IMG/VR virus record: IMGVR_UViG_3300045988_074608
Strand: one strand, 5' to 3'
From: a virus
DNA length: 64,000 bases
Of this stretch, positions 44,651 through 59,395 are shown in pieces. The first letter of the stretch is position 1; every line of letters starts with the position of its first letter. The translations under genes were made by a program, and so were the position numbers. The notes below the pieces were generated by a model, which saw only the letters and a program-made list of their open reading frames with translations, was not told the DNA's origin and did not search any database.

Positions 44651-46450
44651 TTAGGCTGCTACGTTATAAGCACCTTTATTCGTAATGTCTGTATCCTCAG
44701 CATCACAGTACAGAATACCACAAGACAGCGGATTACGAAGCATAATACCCTCCTCACCGAGGAAGTGAACCTGGTAACCATCACGGCTGTTAGAACGTAC
44801 TGTATTAATACTATTGCTATATCCAGCTGGAGTTACAGAACCTGCTGTACACCACTGTACAAACTCACGACCCTTACGACAAACCTTAACAACGTTTGCC
44901 TGACCATCACGCTGACCAAGATCAACAAACAAGAATGTGTATGACATCAATGGTTTACCTGTAACCGGATGCAACTGACGGAACATTTCCATATTATCAA
45001 ACAGAGCACAACGCTTAACTGTAAGCTCAATACCGTTAGTCATCTTATATGTAGTAAACTGACCACCGAGTGTCAACTCCTGACCAGAACCAGTGATAAA
45101 CTTAGTATCAGTAAGCTGGAATCCAGCTGCCTTCTCACGAAGTACACGGTCAAATTCTCTAATCATTTATGTTTAGTTCATATCGTTAATACAAACCGGT
45201 TTTTATTGACCAAATAAAAACCCTCATATTTTCATATGAGATCAGACTATATCTTCAACCTATAAAAAGGTTGTCCACCATTTCGATTTCACTTGAAACC
45301 TACTCCTTTCGGATAGTCGTTGAACGTTCTTAACTAAATAAGTTAAGCTTCGCTGCTGATTGCCTCCAACTTAATGGTAAGGTTTTCCAGCAATTAGATG
45401 GATTTTCAAGTAACATTACTGCTACAGGGAGCTATGTTGTTAACCCATTTCTCCTGTCAAAGCGATAAACTTACGCTCCTGTGTACCGAGAATATTATAA
45501 CACAGATCGAACAGATAATCCTCAAGCAGCTCAGCTGTCAAATGTGTATAATAACGTACATTAGCAGGACTAATCTGCTCAAACAAACCTGCAGAGATTG
45601 GCACAGGTCTTCCATTTTTACCTCTAAGAGCATATGTACCATCAGCATTACGGTTAGAACGAGAGAACAGAAGGAACTTCTCCTCACGACGTTTCCACTC
45701 ACGAAGAGCCAACCAATACTGATAATCAGACCACAAATAAGAAGTCTTACCTGTCTCAGGATCCTTCAATGCGATAGCAAGTACTGTAGAATAAGCATCA
45801 CCTGTAATATCGTAAGAAAGACGAAGAGTTGTAAGGTTATTACGCATCTTAAATGGAGTCTGATAGCTGATGATATCTGCCTCATCACTGTACTCCTCGT
45901 ATGCAGAACCAATACGGCTTACCTGACGACCAGGAAGAAGGAACTCACCAGGAATATATGCTCCTGCGAAACCATCTGCTACATAGCATTCATATACCCA
46001 TGTAGAACCATCCTGATAAGGTACACCATTTACACGTACCTGATAGTTTACATTATCGAAAGCAAGTACAGCACCAGGACCGAAAGCTTTTTCCTCAAGT
46101 CCAATGTAGATAGGAGCTCCATTCAAACCTGGAGTAACAGTATTCGCATTGTTAGAAGTAATCTCTGCACCATCAGCCTTAGCCCAACGAATATTTACAG
46201 CCTTCTCCTGGTCAACCATTACTGACCACTCGTACTCACGATTCTCAATAGTCATAGTCTTACCGAGACCACCAGTAATCATGTCGATAGCAGTAGATAC
46301 ACCATCATCCTTAGTACCAAATACCAAAGAAAGAAGACCACTAATCTCATGAGGTCTTGTAAGAAGTGCGTTTGAAATCATGTTCTCATCAACCAAATCA
46401 GAGAATTTACGACCTCTGTAAAGCTGAAGATTATTTAAAAGTGTATTCAT
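44651..46450 (-). CDS. Major capsid protein, two exons (46450..45443 and 45163..44651) joined across a group I intron; 506 aa, no TAG
   Basis: Track ORFs 45440..46450 and 44651..45166 are in the same frame and are separated by 279 nt of ribozyme-like sequence. The predicted junction is ...LTGEMG/IREFDRV... It is a GC-enriched gene placed after the scaffold-like gene, as in crAss-like head modules. Confidence 0.75.
45164..45442 (-). mobile_element. Group I intron (IA2, T4 td-like), ORF-less, 279 nt
   Basis: The canonical P, Q, R and S elements occur in order on the minus strand: AATTGCTGGAAAACC, CAATCAGCAGC, GTTCAACGACTATCC, GAAGATATAGTCTGATC. The 5' exon ends in GGU, followed by UAA. The intron ends in ...AACAUAAAUG. 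Several stretches (AACGACUAUCC...GGAGUAGG...CAAGUGA...UCGAAA...GACAAC...AGAUAUAGUCUG) match my recollection of the T4 td intron. Confidence 0.85.
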
Positions 46451-53270: not shown

Positions 53271-56200
53271 TTAAAAATTAAATATTGACGAATCTTCTTC
53301 CTAAGGACCGTCGTCCCACCATTGACTACTAAACAATGGTTTTTCAAAGAGTTCGACTTGTTTATTCTGTTCTTTAGCACTAGATACTTTTACTTGATAT
53401 AATTCTTCTCTATAAATCATAACCATGCATAGTGCTATAACACGGTCTACATTACGAACCTAATCATCCATTATTAATTCTTCTATTAAAGGTTCGCTAA
53501 ATATTCTTTCTATATTTGGATGTCCTGGTTCATATTCTTCCATCATCCATTCTAGTATTAAACCTTCGCCATATGCTCTTATTTGTTTTGTCATATGACA
53601 ACCTTTTCTACGCTATACTGTAGAGTTTTTAAACAATTCACTAATTACTTTATCAGGCTAATCAGCTAATAAGTAATCGCAATGTTTATTTGTAAAATAT
53701 GGGTATATACCTTTACGTTCGTTCTCAAATAATAACCTAGCGTTATAAAATAATAACAACTTACGAACGTTTTCATAATACTCTTCTGCTGTATCTGGTC
53801 TACCAGAATATTCGGCTACTATTACATCTGTCCAAGCTTCTCCTGCTTGTACACGTTTAAATATAAATGTAGACCCTAATGAATTTGTAAAAGATTCATC
53901 ATGGTCATAAGGGTCACATCCTCCTATATATAATCCAAACGGAGGATCCTTTACTGGGTACTCCCATATAACAACTGATCCTGCAGGTTTCTAATCTTTC
54001 TTTAGTGGATAATTAGTAATATCTCCAGTTTTCTTTTCTATTGCTATAACTCCACCGTCACCATCCCATTGCAAATCAACTATGTGTTTCATACTCTATA
54101 ATTTTTTATTAGTACGAATTCTTGTAAGTTGATCCATTAATAGTTTGCGCGGAAATATGTTTTTACCAAGCTCTAATATAGCTTCTTGTGGTTTTATCGG
54201 ACGTTCTGATATAAATCTATCTATGGATTGCTAACTAGCACCACCATCTTTAATAATGTTACGTTGTTTTATAAGTTCCTCAATTGTTTTTTCACGAAGA
54301 CTGTTTCCATCTTCATCCATATAGATATATTTACCATCATCGTCAAACGATTCAAGATTACTCCATGCAGGTACGAAAAAACCACATTCTGTTTGTTCTG
54401 CATTATCATCCCATATATTTGGAAATGATAGAACATTATAAGCTTTTGGTTTATAAAATAATGCTTTCAAACCATCGAACGACGCACCTTCTGTTCCGCC
54501 TGTGTTATGTGTAACAATACCGTTGCATATATAGTTATGTTGTTCGTCTGCTGTAAGATTATATATATCTTGTTCACCAATATCTTCAATATTTACAATT
54601 TTTTCAGCATGTACCCCAAGTACGTATTTATGATATTGAGCAACATGTTCTTGTGTGTATAACATCATCAAATCTAATGCTGATTGTTTATATGTAACAG
54701 CACACGATATACATTTTGCGAAATTTCCAATACTTGTTATATCATTAATTGTCAATCTCCAGTGTCCTGGTCCATCTTTTATAACTTTACCATTAGAAAC
54801 GTGCTTTCGATATTTAGTTTTAATAAAGCGTATGCTACAATGAACACCGAAATGTATCAACACTTCCTCAATCTATCGTAATAATGGTTCCTAACACTAT
54901 GTTAATGTTATACGAGGTTTTCCGGATTTATCAATTTGTATATATCCGTCGGTGTCAAACAAACCACCTATTAATTCCGCTAAAGATTCTTGATCATATT
55001 GATGTATATTTACTGGTAATCGTTTCTTATCTTTTACCTGACCATAAATACCGAGTTCTCGTAATTTTGGACAAATTCCTTTTATGCGAGTTTCTTTATA
55101 AATTTTACCATCTTTAGTAATACGAACTGGTCTATCTAACGAAGTATTAAAATGTGTTTCTATGTATTCATTTATTTCGTTATCACAATTTGACAACCTT
55201 GGCGTTTTATCAAAACCATAACTACCATCGCCAATTAACCAACCAACAACTCTAGGTTCCCACATTTTTTTAGTTCCAAAGAACGGAATGTTGTCGATAA
55301 CGCCGACCTATTCACCAATTTTACATTTCGAAGCTTCATGCCACTTCCATTGTTTCATTGTTTGATTTTCTTTACGTTTTCCAGGAACTCTTTTTGTCAA
55401 ACCGGCATGTGACCATAAAATCGGGTGGTCCGTACTACATTCTAATATTCTTCCAGTGTTTGTGGTTATTCTAACACATGGTTTTTTAGCCGGTGGATTG
55501 AAATGTGATATATGTTGCTAAACAGCCTAATAAGTATCCCAACCTAAAATACCATCCTCTTTATGTAAATCTTCAATATTAACACAATTTCCAGAAGAAG
55601 TCCATACTTTTGTACCTTTACATACACATCCAAAGGATATCATCAATCCAAATGCAACACCATCATCCGTTTCTACAGCAGGTTGTTCAACACGCCAAGC
55701 ATCTAATAAACTTGGGAATTTACCACTTTCTTCCCACAATACTAATCTACCACGAGTACCACGAATACGTTCAGGATCGTTTTTCAATGTAATACCTGTA
55801 ATACTTGATAGATAACCCTATTCTGTCTATTTACCAAATTCGTCAGTAACTTTGTAACCAGATACTCGTTCCATTCTTGTAGATGTCAAACGTTGTTTTG
55901 CCCATGCTGTATTCTTATCTATAAAATCCATGATCTGCCATGCTTTTGTAAGCAATCCATCTCCGATTAAGAATTTTTGTTCTGATGCAACTGCAAAATT
56001 TTTAGAACCTGGTATGAGTTCGTAATTACGAACTAACATTGAAGCACCTTTAAAGCTATATCCACGTTGTCTACATTTTAACACTGCCATGTGTTTACCG
56101 ACTGTTTCTGCTTCTTCTACAGCATTAAAATAATAATAATCATAATCCCAAAATTTAGGGAAGTCAAATATACGCTCTCTTCTTTTTCTTGTATCACCAT

Positions 56201-56453
56201 TTCTATCAACATATTCTGTTTCTATTAATCGCATAATTGGACAATAGTTTAAATAAAAATAATGATAACCTGTAATCTAATCTCCATCTGGAGCAGTATA
56301 CCCATTTAAACATCTATCTGTTTCTCGCTCCCAATATTTAACATAATCTGTAGTACCTCTGGGAGCTAAGGTATAACATTTATGCACTTTAAAGAATTCT
56401 GCAGCTTCACAGAATTTTTTTGTGTTTTTTATATGCTAATTAAAATCAACCAT
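53271..56453 (-). CDS. terL: Terminase large subunit precursor (1,060 aa; about 685 aa after intein removal)
   Basis: The ATG at 56453 overlaps the upstream TAA (TAATG). Track ORFs 55827..56234, 55527..55787, 54897..55265 and 54231..54863 share the frame. I translated from 54231 to 53271 by hand and found TAG only, ending at TAA 53271-53273. The nuclease motif is GLYIGGCDPYDHDES. Confidence 0.85.
54504..55628 (-). mobile_element. Intein (375 aa) with a LAGLIDADG homing endonuclease domain, inserted in TerL
   Basis: The N-terminal splice junction is ISFG/CVCKGTKVWTSSG, a Cys-1 block A-like sequence. The C-terminal junction is NGIVTHN/TGGTEG, an HN followed by Thr+1. The two LAGLIDADG motifs are VVGWLIGDGSYG and ELIGGLFDTDGYI. 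Its length is divisible by 3. It contains six in-frame TAG codons (55527, 55518, 55308, 54897, 54891, 54873). Confidence 0.85.
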
Positions 56454-56650
56454 TACAAATCCAATTTATTTTCGTTGGAAATTATTATTCTGTCTCCGTC
56501 ATCATTTGTAAACAAATAATGATACATTTCGTCATGCAATACAACATTTTCTTCTCCCACTTTTGTTATATTTCCAACTGTTTTCCAATCTGCAGAAAGT
56601 GACAATTCTTTATATTTATTGTCATTTTTTCCTTTTATACTTACATTCAT
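56453..56650 (-). CDS. Small protein upstream of TerL (65 aa)
   Basis: Intact track ORF whose TAA overlaps the TerL ATG. Confidence 0.5.
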   Translation of the reverse strand: MNVSIKGKNDNKYKELSLSADWKTVGNITKVGEENVVLHDEMYHYLFTNDDGDRIIISNENKLDL

Positions 56651-57246: not shown

Positions 57247-57780
57247 TTACGCATCCGCCTCAGCTACAGACGACTCTGTAACCGCCGCTTGAGTCTTTAC
57301 TTCGTCGTCACGAGTAGGTTGCTCTGCGCTAATATTGTCATTTTTTGTACCTGTGGAACCATAACCTTTATCACCACGCTCTGTTTCACTTAATTCAGAT
57401 GCTTCTACTACTGTAATATCCGGAATTGGGACAATTACCAATTGGCAAAATCTCTCACCTTCTTGATACACTGCAGGGATAACATCAGTTGTATTTCTGA
57501 ATATAGCCTTGATTTCTCCACGATAATTGCTGTCAATAACACCTACACAATTCGATTGTATCAAAGATGTTTTAAACACACTACTACGTGGAAACAAAAG
57601 ACCTACATGTCCTTCTGGAATCTCTACAGCAAGTCCTGTATGATACTCCAAAAGAAGTTGATTACAACTATTACGTACAGGTATGATTTCTGTACATGTT
57701 AAATCTAAACCGGCGTCGCCTTTGTAATTTTTGATTGGCATAATAGCCTTATCGTTCAATCTTTTAAATTTCAGTTCCAT
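57247..57780 (-). CDS. dut: dUTP diphosphatase (trimeric dUTPase) with a C-terminal acidic extension
   Basis: All five dUTPase motifs are present: GDAGLDL, PRSS, GVIDSNYRGE, RFCQLVI and RGDKGYGSTG. I prefer the ATG at 57780 (MELKFKRL) over the track start at 57846. Confidence 0.9.
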   Translation of the reverse strand: MELKFKRLNDKAIMPIKNYKGDAGLDLTCTEIIPVRNSCNQLLLEYHTGLAVEIPEGHVGLLFPRSSVFKTSLIQSNCVGVIDSNYRGEIKAIFRNTTDVIPAVYQEGERFCQLVIVPIPDITVVEASELSETERGDKGYGSTGTKNDNISAEQPTRDDEVKTQAAVTESSVAEADA

Positions 57781-57920
57781 ATATGCTTTTTTTATTATTT
57801 TTAATAGCGCAGTATTTACGAATCGAACGTAAATCTCTGTATTCATTCCATACAGCGAAATTCCATTATTCCAATACCGCTGGTAGCCCCACTAGGATTC
57901 GAACCCAGACTAAAAGGGTT

Positions 57921-58907
57921 CAGTAAACTCGACTGTTGCATCCAATCCTAAGATCAGTCTTCTCGTTCAGTCTGTCACGCTGCTTTCGCTTGCGCCTCGT
58001 CAACATTGTCTTCCGAGTCAATTAGAGAAGATTCTAATAACGGATTATTTATTATCCCGCTATCATCCAATATTTTCCAATGACTGTTCAACCAAAAATT
58101 ATCTTTGTTGTACATGATAGTTCTAGTACATGTTTTCACACGTTTTGTTTTAACTTCATTATTCTCTATTAAAGCTTTTGCAGCTTCTACAAGAGAACCA
58201 TATCTTGCTAACTCATTCCAATTTTCATCATACCTTATTATATATTTTTGATTGGAATGTTTTTGACCAGATTCGTTAACTATTTTTGTAACAACACATC
58301 TACGTATTCCAAGAATTGATGATACTTTTTTAACATTTTTAACTTCGTTATATTTTTTTTCAACTATGTTTCTTATTTCTTCCGAAATATCATATTTAGA
58401 ATTATTAAGTTGTTGATTTCTACTACCATATGTAGAAGTCTGACTATGACAATTAGGACATAGAAATCTAAGATTCTCTAATCTATTGTCATTATTTATT
58501 CCGTTTATATGATCAAGTTCTAAACTTAACGTTTTCCCTTGCCATTCGGTACATCCACATATTGCACATTTATATGGTATTAAGTTGTTTTTAATTATGT
58601 ATCTTCTCAATACTGTACGTTGATGTTTACAATTTTCTTTTAGTATATCTTCTTTCTTTACATTGTTTAGCTTGGTAGTTTTTATAATAGCAGATCTCCC
58701 TTTGAATATAGAATGGTCTAAATTCAGATCATCCATTCTTCTTTTTACTTGAGAATATCCCCAAGAGTTTCCTTTAACTGTATAACCAAGTTTAAACAAC
58801 ACTTCAGATATTGTTGAACTTTTCTTGAGTAACTCAACAAACTGTTCGTCTGAGAGTTTATATATTTTATTTTCCATTATTATATATTCAATTATTCATT
58901 GGACAAA
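57921..58907 (-). mobile_element. Intron in the tRNA anticodon loop (between nt 35 and 36), probably group I, carrying an HNH homing endonuclease ORF
   Basis: The 5' exon ends in U and the intron ends in G, and this is the only junction that gives a 7-nt loop. There are only 30 nt upstream and 54 nt downstream of the ORF. The GC-rich 3' end contains weak P/Q/R/S-like strings (AGCGGGAT, AATCCGTT, GACAGACTGAACG, ACAGTCGAG) and a GC-GAAA-GC tetraloop hairpin. I could not find a convincing P1/IGS pairing by hand. Confidence 0.5.
57975..58877 (-). CDS. HNH homing endonuclease (300 aa), no TAG
   Basis: Intact track ORF. The HNH motif is CAICGCTEWQGKTLSLELDHINGINNDNRLENLRFLCPNCH. A helix-turn-helix-like segment (VKKVSSILGIRRCVVTKIV) follows. 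It lies entirely inside the tRNA intron. Confidence 0.85.
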   Translation of the reverse strand: MENKIYKLSDEQFVELLKKSSTISEVLFKLGYTVKGNSWGYSQVKRRMDDLNLDHSIFKGRSAIIKTTKLNNVKKEDILKENCKHQRTVLRRYIIKNNLIPYKCAICGCTEWQGKTLSLELDHINGINNDNRLENLRFLCPNCHSQTSTYGSRNQQLNNSKYDISEEIRNIVEKKYNEVKNVKKVSSILGIRRCVVTKIVNESGQKHSNQKYIIRYDENWNELARYGSLVEAAKALIENNEVKTKRVKTCTRTIMYNKDNFWLNSHWKILDDSGIINNPLLESSLIDSEDNVDEAQAKAA

Positions 58908-59009
58908 AGAGCCTTCTGTGCTAACCGTTACACCATAGGGCAATATGAGGCATTTTAACGTCGGAGCCTCTCGACGGTTTATACAATGAAAGTTTTCAAT
59001 AGCTTATTG

Positions 59010-59058
59010 TAGTAATTCGGGAATCGAACCCGAGATTTGATATCCTCCAAGATTACTT
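59010..59058 (-). other. tRNA-like minihelix (acceptor stem plus T arm only), a possible tRNA remnant
   Basis: The minus strand reads AAGTAAT-CTTGGAGGATATCAAATC-TCGGG-TTCGATT-CCCGA-ATTACTA. It has a canonical T arm and a 6-7 bp acceptor-like stem, but no D arm or normal anticodon arm. Confidence 0.35.
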
Positions 59059-59065
59059 GTTATTG

Positions 59066-59395
59066 TTACTTCTTACGAGTAACCCAATTCCAAAATCTCT
59101 TAAAGATATTTGGTTTCTTTTTGCAAATACATTCTTCACAAGGATCCTCAAGTTGTATTTTATTATTCTCAAGGTCTGCCATGTAATCCGCCATAGCACT
59201 ATTGATTTCATCTGCAACTTGTGCAAAATATGCATTTACTGCATAATCACGTATAATATTCATTTCAACATCGCGCATCGCATTAAACTTAGCGAGAACT
59301 ACACACTTATACGGATCTGTAACTTGTGTAATTTTTGTAAGATCTATAACGATCTTCTTACTTTTATCGTTTTTCTTCATCTTCTTCGTATTCAT
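59066..59395 (-). CDS. Hypothetical protein (109 aa), no TAG
   Basis: Intact track ORF with ATG start and TAA stop. Confidence 0.55.
   Translation of the reverse strand: MNTKKMKKNDKSKKIVIDLTKITQVTDPYKCVVLAKFNAMRDVEMNIIRDYAVNAYFAQVADEINSAMADYMADLENNKIQLEDPCEECICKKKPNIFKRFWNWVTRKK

Follow-up and report, generated by a model that had tools for sequence, protein, structure and literature searches.

A probable mobile group I-type intron with an HNH endonuclease gene in the amber suppressor tRNA gene of a TAG-recoded crAss-like phage

Group I introns of type IC3 are established in the anticodon loops of bacterial transfer RNA (tRNA) genes, where they interrupt tRNA-Leu(UAA) in cyanobacteria and plastids, tRNA-fMet in cyanobacteria, tRNA-Ile(CAU) in Azoarcus and tRNA-Arg(CCU) in Agrobacterium. 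The tRNA-fMet intron of Synechocystis PCC 6803 is said to encode the endonuclease I-Ssp6803I, as Bonocora and Shub reportedly found in 2001. In phages, group I introns with HNH enzymes are known from SPO1 and SP82 (I-HmuI/II), Twort (I-TwoI) and the nrdB gene of T4 (I-TevIII). Structures of the Azoarcus pre-tRNA have been described (PMC13168695), and uninterrupted suppressor tRNA(CUA) genes have been reported in TAG-recoded Crassvirales and other gut phages (PMC7886860; 10.1101/2021.08.26.457843). Here I analyse a stretch of 64,000 nucleotides (nt) of the virus record IMGVR_UViG_3300045988_074608, hereafter the window, on whose minus strand a tRNA(CUA) gene is split by an insert of 987 nt. Very probably the locus is a functional amber suppressor gene, of the glutamine (Gln) type, in a TAG-recoded crAss-like gut phage, and the insert is a mobile group I-type intron that is excised from the RNA.

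With the bacterial tRNA introns, this locus has in common a site in the anticodon loop immediately following a U, a small core, a very short (here predicted) P1 and P10 built from anticodon-loop bases, and a mature tRNA that would exist only after splicing. It differs from them in its host gene, a phage stop-codon suppressor with the insertion at 35/36, in an HNH open reading frame (ORF) of 300 amino acids (aa) placed in the predicted P1 loop and overlapping P1 to P6, and in that its clade lacks P9, is invisible to the Rfam model RF00028 and has some members that end in A. The Synechocystis tRNA-fMet intron resembles it as an anticodon-loop group I intron with a homing endonuclease aimed at the intron-less anticodon region; there, however, the enzyme is of the PD-(D/E)XK type rather than HNH, the host is a cell rather than a phage and the tRNA is an ordinary initiator. 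The introns of SPO1/SP82, Twort and T4 nrdB are likewise phage-borne and sporadic, with an HNH ORF looped out of a peripheral helix, and in ORF-carrying phage introns, too, the 3' end of the ORF can enter the core, but those introns sit in protein-coding genes, have a fuller periphery (P7.1/7.2, P9.x) and are detectable with Rfam, as is a related phage example without an ORF in the window itself, at 45223-45452 (108 bits). The uninterrupted suppressors (locus L002, introduced below, and at least 81 alleles in IMG/VR) represent the same tRNA with the same presumed role, the reading of TAG as Gln in late genes, whereas here the gene is split. Group I introns in tRNA genes and HNH introns in phages are thus already known, and what is new is a host gene with a specific biological consequence; new as well are the ORF in the P1 loop overlapping the core, the P9-less core that Rfam does not see and the natural variants ending in A. 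The initial annotation of this DNA was aware of no intron in the suppressor tRNA of a recoded phage, and neither full-text searches nor the main papers on recoded Crassvirales yielded a description of one; what those papers report is that suppressor tRNAs are missing for no known reason.

The two tRNA halves, at 58942-58908 and 57920-57881, had been proposed to fit together as one gene across the 987 nt that separate them, and this holds. When ARAGORN is run with introns allowed, it calls a single tRNA, c[57881,58942], that contains an intron of 987 nt, and joining 58942..58908 to 57920..57881 in silico, as the initial annotation had suggested, produces a 75-nt cloverleaf with a 7-nt anticodon loop and the anticodon CUA (cta in ARAGORN). 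The 5' exon (58908-58942, nt 1-35) ends in ...GAAGG-CUCU, and the 3' exon (57881-57920, nt 36-75) begins with AAC-CCUUU and continues through the T arm and the acceptor strand to A73 and an encoded CCA; the anticodon stem is GAAGG/CCUUU, and U1.U72 is a mismatch. In ten shuffled versions of the window (640 kb in all) the intron mode of ARAGORN produced one false positive. In default mode no tRNA(CUA) is called in the 64-kb window, the sole tRNA call being a tRNA-Ile(AAU) at 57807-57880.

It had further been claimed that one junction alone gives a 7-nt loop, which is not the case: any of eight split points does so, and the one that ARAGORN itself picks yields the anticodon UGA. The junction proposed at the time, CU-CUA-AC, is nevertheless the right one. 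An intron-less allele on the phage scaffold MT836720.1 (L002, 3966-4040; ...GGAGGCTCTAACCCTC...) agrees with the window in the 5' exon as far as CTCT and in the 3' exon from AAC onward, the 3' exon of the window being 97.5% identical to it. Because this allele fixes the junction, the intron (57921-58907) lies between the anticodon bases U35 and A36 (CUCU|AAC), the ligated exons would read ...CAGAAGGCUCU|AACCCUUUUAGUC... and the mature anticodon is CUA.

Three scans brought the number of related loci to about 100. The first, with a 20-nt stretch of the intron 3' region, returned 18 IMG/VR loci; the second, with a pattern spanning the internal guide sequence (IGS) and helix P2, returned 60 metagenome contigs and 3 contigs in metagenome-derived genome bins; and the third, based on the protein, returned 28 loci, including a divergent clade B with an HNH identity of 55-60%. 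All 64 loci that are complete at both junctions, representing 38 distinct tRNA bodies, have the insert within a tRNA(CUA) gene and at a common site, CTCT|AAC in 61 and CTCT|AAA in 3 (locus L127, with CTCT|AGC, was left out of this count). Among the carriers is the complete GenBank genome of Bohxovirus PV686213 (Crassvirales, Suoliviridae), with 76% identity, where the site is annotated as 'hypothetical protein' only. Besides L002, at least 81 intron-less alleles in IMG/VR share the anticodon arm GGCUCUAACCC, and almost the same tRNA is found both interrupted (L003, L007) and uninterrupted (L002). An intron that spreads by means of a homing endonuclease, whose cleavage activity is predicted here, would be expected to show just such a scattered occurrence in a conserved target. 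The calls of ARAGORN, the intron-less allele and the roughly 100 homologous loci together bear out the view that the suppressor tRNA is split by an intron bearing an HNH gene.

Several observations on these loci stand on their own. In many of them a short hairpin (e.g. GAGGC...GCCUC), followed by AUAUU, directly precedes the 5' exon, in the window at ~58943-58990 and in relatives at the same position; it is present despite differing sequence and may be a processing or terminator element. A number of intron-bearing tRNA(CUA) genes (L004, L005, L017 and the L106-L161 group) have non-canonical T arms, e.g. GUGGG-GGAGGCA-CCUAC, without UUC, and are missed by ARAGORN even with introns allowed. The contig IMGVR_UViG_3300045988_076858 (162 kb) contains two intron-bearing tRNA(CUA) genes with different bodies, L251 and L254, ~105 kb apart, which points either to a genome with two split suppressors or to an assembly that is chimeric or concatenated. 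In L273 (CAVBBU010000004.1, binned as Bacteroidaceae) the anticodon-stem strand is CCGGG in the 5' exon and CCUCU in the 3' exon; these derive from different tRNA bodies and are unable to pair, and the locus is either a chimera from recombination or co-conversion or a mis-assembly. A tRNA-Ile(UAU) with a 512-nt intron, called by ARAGORN in L253 and L256, is an artefact in which two neighbouring tRNAs were joined. A search of IMG/VR with the pattern TGGATGYAACAGTCG returned 99 stretches, but every new one among them had matched by chance, without the remainder of the core.

That the late genes depend on reading through TAG, as had been assumed from the start, is evident from the coding capacity of the window: with a minimum length of 150 aa, stop-to-stop ORFs take up 34% of it in the standard code and 90% once TAG counts as a sense codon. 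A minus-strand block at 2.5-56.5 kb contains hundreds of in-frame TAGs, and the split tRNA gene, which has the same orientation, lies upstream of this block, where the surrounding genes have few in-frame TAGs or none. Aligned with Bohxovirus homologues, the TAG codons of the window face TAG in 22 cases and Gln in 19, against a Gln background of 3.3%, and in the reverse comparison the Bohxovirus TAG codons face Gln in 29 cases and TAG in 22; Gln at aligned TAG codons is about 6-fold above background. The weak first pair U1.U72 of this tRNA is a Gln-like feature. The alignments agree with proteomics of other crAss-like phages, in which TAG was demonstrated to encode Gln (PMC9523058), and suggest a Gln-type tRNA(CUA). 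The complete Bohxovirus genome is likewise TAG-recoded, and no second tRNA(CUA) was found in it, even at relaxed ARAGORN thresholds. Relaxed thresholds gave two low-scoring 'cta' calls in the window, which were rejected as they lie inside coding regions among 84 obvious false positives.

The intron ORF (58877-57975, minus strand) encodes 300 aa and ends with a TGA stop at 57977-57975; it contains no TAG and is therefore readable in the standard code. Its product matches the HNH domain PF01844 of Pfam at residues 104-146 with 22.0 bits, slightly above the cut-off of 21.4, and phrog_10822 'HNH endonuclease' with E=6e-46, which marks it as a putative homing endonuclease. An intact, TAG-free ORF of 291-309 aa is present in 63 of the 64 complete loci. 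At the TAG frequency of the late genes (~1.4% of codons) about 4 TAGs would be expected per 300-codon ORF, and the HNH ORFs have none, like early genes. The ORF leaves 30 + 54 nt of the intron uncovered, confirming that it fills all but 84 nt. The accompanying prediction, that a ribozyme core must overlap the 3' end of the ORF, fits the core modelled below, which occupies the last ~165 nt of the intron, is largely inside the ORF and is overlapped by its last ~33 codons (42 when the P1-extension strand is counted).

Conservation at the nucleotide level peaks in the last ~150 nt of the intron, with a mean pairwise identity of 0.91-0.93. In the Bohxovirus group the ORF stops in another frame, yet the nucleotides are conserved, and the constraint therefore acts on the RNA. 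Group I introns have the conserved order P3-P4-P5-P5'-P4'-P6-P6'-P7-P3'-P8-P8'-P7', with a P3/P7 pseudoknot (PMC3679873). The same order of P3 to P8, pseudoknot included, is present in the intron core, with 98-99.6% of cells paired, and the compact core P1-P8 as a whole fits into the last ~165 nt of the insert. In 46 distinct cores 99.6% of the cells are standard pairs, and compensatory changes affect 11 of the 39 pairs, each helix from P2 to P8 having at least one; alignments slid out of register are 31-48% paired, and none of 500 shuffles reached the observed value. With 6 clade B cores added, the compensatory pairs rise to 20 of 39, including 6/7 in P3 and 2/6 in P7.

From 5' to 3', all on the minus strand, the modelled core opens with the P2 hairpin (58037-58063, AUAGCGGGAU-AAUAAAUA-AUCCGUUAU), in which 5 of 9 pairs are compensatory. 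The 5' strand of P3, UCUUCUC (58025-58031), has its partner GAGAAGA at 57958-57964, and as this 3' strand lies between the 5' strand of P7 and P8, a P3/P7 pseudoknot results. P4 (CUCG/CGAG) encloses a P5 of 3 base pairs (bp; GAC/GUU) at 57996-58017, with A-rich junctions (J4/5 GAA, J5/4 GA) and compensatory changes in 2/4 and 2/3 pairs, respectively. It is followed by P6/P6a (57977-57995, GCGC-AA-GC-GAAA-GC-A-GCGU), which is 100% paired, with a change from C-G to U-A in P6a, and which is the GAAA-capped hairpin that the initial annotation had noticed. The segment J6/7-P7-J7/3 (57976-57965) reads GA-CAGACUG-AAC. Within it the P7 5' strand, C-A(bulge)-GACUG (57968-57974), pairs with 57930-57935 and carries the G of the G-C pair that binds guanosine. 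P8 (57944-57955, GAUC-UUAG-GAUU) has compensatory changes in 2/4 pairs and occurs in five stem variants. After J8/7 (GGAUGCAA) and the P7 3' strand CAGUCG (together 57930-57943), the intron finishes with a 9-nt tail, AGUUUACUG (57921-57929), that has no P9 hairpin and ends in the omega G (57921). The guanosine site in P7 is canonical (CAGACU/AGUCG), its G-C pair beside a bulged nucleotide being invariant in all 46 + 6 sequences, while elsewhere in the helix GACUG/CAGUC is replaced by GACUA/UAGUC and C-G with a bulged A by A-U with a bulged C. The P7 of clade B (AACGACUA/UAGUCU) is identical to that of another intron in the window, at 45223-45452, which RF00028 does recognise. The assignment to group I, at first only a conjecture, now has behind it a P2-P8 model backed by covariation, with the P3/P7 pseudoknot and a canonical P7, and appears well founded.

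The initial annotation had found no convincing P1 or IGS. A candidate exists at 58066-58071, within the ORF, where 5'-AUU|GGA-3' can be read from the sequence as part of UUGGAUG, invariant in all loci; it lies ~840 nt downstream of the 5' splice site and directly 5' of P2. It had been missed because of this distance, with the ORF sitting in the loop of an extended P1. GGA is complementary to the last three bases of the 5' exon, U-3 C-2 U-1 (58910-58908), which would give a P1 of 3 bp whose pair at the 5' splice site is the canonical U.G wobble, and AUU is complementary via UU to AA of the 3' exon, a putative P10 of 2 bp to which relatives with GUU add a third pair, G-C. Both partners are invariant, and the exon part of P1 and P10 are proposed from position and complementarity. 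For the extension of P1 there is covariation. The intron bases from ~+4 to +25 are predicted to pair in every subgroup with 20-30 nt just upstream of the IGS, and since the two segments are so placed, the ORF would be looped out of the extended P1. In the window the 5' strand (UCCAAUGA ... AUUGAAU, 58886-58903) lies just upstream of the start codon of the ORF, and the 3' strand (UUUGGUU ... UCAUUGGA, 58076-58100) closes a loop of ~800 nt that holds the ORF. The duplex is predicted in all 33 distinct 5'/3' combinations, with a free energy of -8 to -17 kcal/mol, and its strands covary, the subgroups differing by compensatory changes: the window has UCCAAUGA/UCAUUGGA, the L008 group GUAAUUCGAUGA/UUACUGGAUUAC, Bohxovirus AAUUCAAUAACUA/UAGUUAUUGGGUU and clade B AAUUUGAA/UUCAAAUU. 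Two other guides were considered. For a GGRG-type guide there is one conserved candidate, GGGG in the 'SWG' codons at ~+150, but its conservation is explained by that of the protein and no core helix is adjacent; UUAGA in J2/3 is Watson-Crick complementary to UCU|AA, and is a far-fetched choice because it follows P2 and provides no U.G wobble.

These elements can be combined into a mechanism. The first ~25 bases of the intron would pair ~800 nt downstream, forming the extended P1, looping out the HNH ORF and setting the 5' splice site onto the guide 5'-AUUGGA-3'. Pairing of GGA with UCU, with its U.G wobble, would constitute P1, and UU would then pair with AA of the 3' exon as P10. The core (P2-P8, with the G-C guanosine site in P7) would direct a guanosine-initiated cleavage at the 5' site, and ligation of the exons at the terminal G (57921) would release the 75-nt tRNA. 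The HNH enzyme would have its target near GGCTCT^AACCC in tRNA(CUA) genes that lack the intron, and cleavage there would let the intron spread by homing. Catalysis by the RNA, homing and any effect on timing are what I infer from this model. As the HNH reading frame runs through the guide sequence and P2-P6, ribosomes translating the endonuclease may unfold the ribozyme. A bolder and rather doubtful proposal joins two ideas, namely that splicing of the suppressor gates the switch to the TAG=Gln code and that the P9-less clade contains natural ribozymes that ligate exons with a terminal adenosine in place of omega G. If true, endonuclease synthesis and suppressor production would be mutually exclusive on each transcript and would set the timing of late-gene translation, and the introns ending in A would be a natural exception to the supposedly universal omega G, in complete, TAG-recoded genomes that have a split tRNA(CUA) alone.

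Several properties of the element speak against a group I intron that is spliced out of a functional gene. RF00028 gives no match at E<=10 either on 57600-59300 (1.7 kb) or on the 226-nt core at 57900-58125, the search that the initial annotation had recommended, nor on five clade B loci at E<=5; when the remaining Rfam families are searched, the region, the 226-nt core and the clade B loci yield just chance-level matches to unrelated families. The window clade lacks P9, with a tail of 8-10 nt after P7, whereas clade B retains a covarying P9 hairpin there; P9 is usual in group I introns, though outside the catalytic definition. P4-P6 is very small in the window clade, and the pairings with the exons, 3 bp in P1 and 2-3 bp in P10, do not vary. 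The window, every clade B locus and 52 of the 64 complete loci have the terminal omega G, but 12-13 of the 64 (~1/5, with 6 distinct tRNA bodies) end in A with P7 unchanged. These introns (L001, L003, L007, L009-L012, L014, L016, L019, L127, L137 and L147, made up of the Bohxovirus group, L014 and L019/L127) terminate in ...ACA|AAC, ...AUA|AAC or ...CUA|AAC, have intact ORFs and show compensatory changes in P2 within the group, which includes the complete, TAG-recoded Bohxovirus genome with the split gene as its sole tRNA(CUA). Alternative junctions for them (shifted sites, 8-nt loops, other anticodons) were tried, and none yields a 7-nt CUA loop together with a terminal G. Splicing is, moreover, a step that I infer, and the search for a second tRNA(CUA) in the genome of this phage covers the 64 kb of the window.

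Part of this evidence could be accommodated by a core that derives from group I but no longer splices by itself, with a protein cofactor needed for its folding or for exon ligation, be it the HNH protein in the role of a maturase, a chaperone of the host, or an RNA ligase that acts once hydrolysis has cleaved the RNA. The core is much reduced, P9 being absent from the window clade and kept in clade B, P1 has just 3 bp, the family goes undetected by RF00028, and variants with a terminal A persist though their second step should be poor. However, every helix of the catalytic core and the G-binding pair are conserved and covary, a maturase role of this HNH protein is without support, and small group I introns of bacterial tRNA genes, among them that of Azoarcus (~205 nt), self-splice even though their P1 is just as short, so that I regard dependence on a cofactor as unlikely, albeit worth keeping in mind. 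Protein splicing of the archaeal or eukaryal type (bulge-helix-bulge endonuclease plus ligase), or another route outside group I, is barely credible: the default intron model of ARAGORN does put the intron at the canonical position 37/38 in several relatives, but this placement gives the anticodon CUU and contradicts the intron-less allele, which has 35/36; no bulge-helix-bulge motif is apparent at the junctions, and the structure that is conserved is that of a group I core. Bacteroidota hosts are not known to have a tRNA splicing endonuclease.

A selfish endonuclease may also simply have killed the tRNA gene, the halves never being rejoined and TAG being decoded by another tRNA of the phage or its host. 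About 35% of the ~100-kb genome lies outside the window, and host-encoded or undetected suppressors have been considered possible (PMC7886860; 10.64898/2026.08.21.746148). Against this, the exons have remained perfect cloverleaf halves with complementary anticodon stems in 38 tRNA bodies, compensatory changes maintain the ribozyme structure, in the terminal-A group as well, and the complete TAG-recoded Bohxovirus has no other tRNA(CUA) that ARAGORN can find, relaxed thresholds included. Standard-code hosts are also not known to carry amber suppressors, and a dead gene appears very improbable.

A suppressor gene interrupted by an intron that is removed from the RNA has consequences for the search for such genes. 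Only ~40% of TAG-recoded genomes proved to have a TAG suppressor that could be detected (10.1101/2021.08.26.457843), and the mismatch between recoding and suppressors has been remarked on elsewhere (PMC7886860, PMC12386605); a 2026 preprint (10.64898/2026.08.21.746148) describes an amber-reassigned Crassvirales phage with no CUA tRNA and cites the same for a Suoliviridae phage. When the tRNA(CUA) gene is split, tRNA finders miss it, and intron-split genes offer an explanation for part of this gap that can be searched for. An RNA-processing step would then stand before the code switch, as a possible timing device. For ribozyme research, the family offers a group I core of ~165 nt unseen by current covariance models, a natural pair of clades with and without P9, and natural variants ending in A. 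The conserved target of the HNH enzyme would be the suppressor anticodon arm, in which case a selfish element exploits the one gene that a recoded phage cannot lose.

Other features of the window, all on the minus strand, deserve mention. The 74-nt tRNA-like gene at 57807-57880, which ARAGORN calls tRNA-Ile(AAU) and which has an unusual A34 anticodon, abuts the CCA end of the suppressor. It overlaps the upstream part of a dUTPase-like ORF (57247-57846), whose true start is likely the internal Met of MELKF... at ~57780; in the closest relatives, L020 and L161, it is absent and the suppressor tRNA runs directly into the dUTPase leader. On the other side, at 59009-59084, is a tRNA-like element whose acceptor stem and T arm (UCGGGUUCGAUUCCCGA) are good and whose D/anticodon region is poor; ARAGORN calls it tRNA-Pro(UGG), at a lowered threshold only, and Rfam sees the T arm alone. 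The intron at 45223-45452 is a genuine group I intron without an ORF, which RF00028 matches with 108.5 bits (E=3e-27); it splits a late gene, apparently of capsid type, into the ORFs 45440-46450 and 44651-45166. Finally, an intein-like insert is apparent at ~55527-55787 (...FGCVCKGTKVWTSSGNCVNIEDL...) within the ORF 53271-56465, which has 17 in-frame TAGs and, judged by its flanking motifs, the look of a terminase large subunit.

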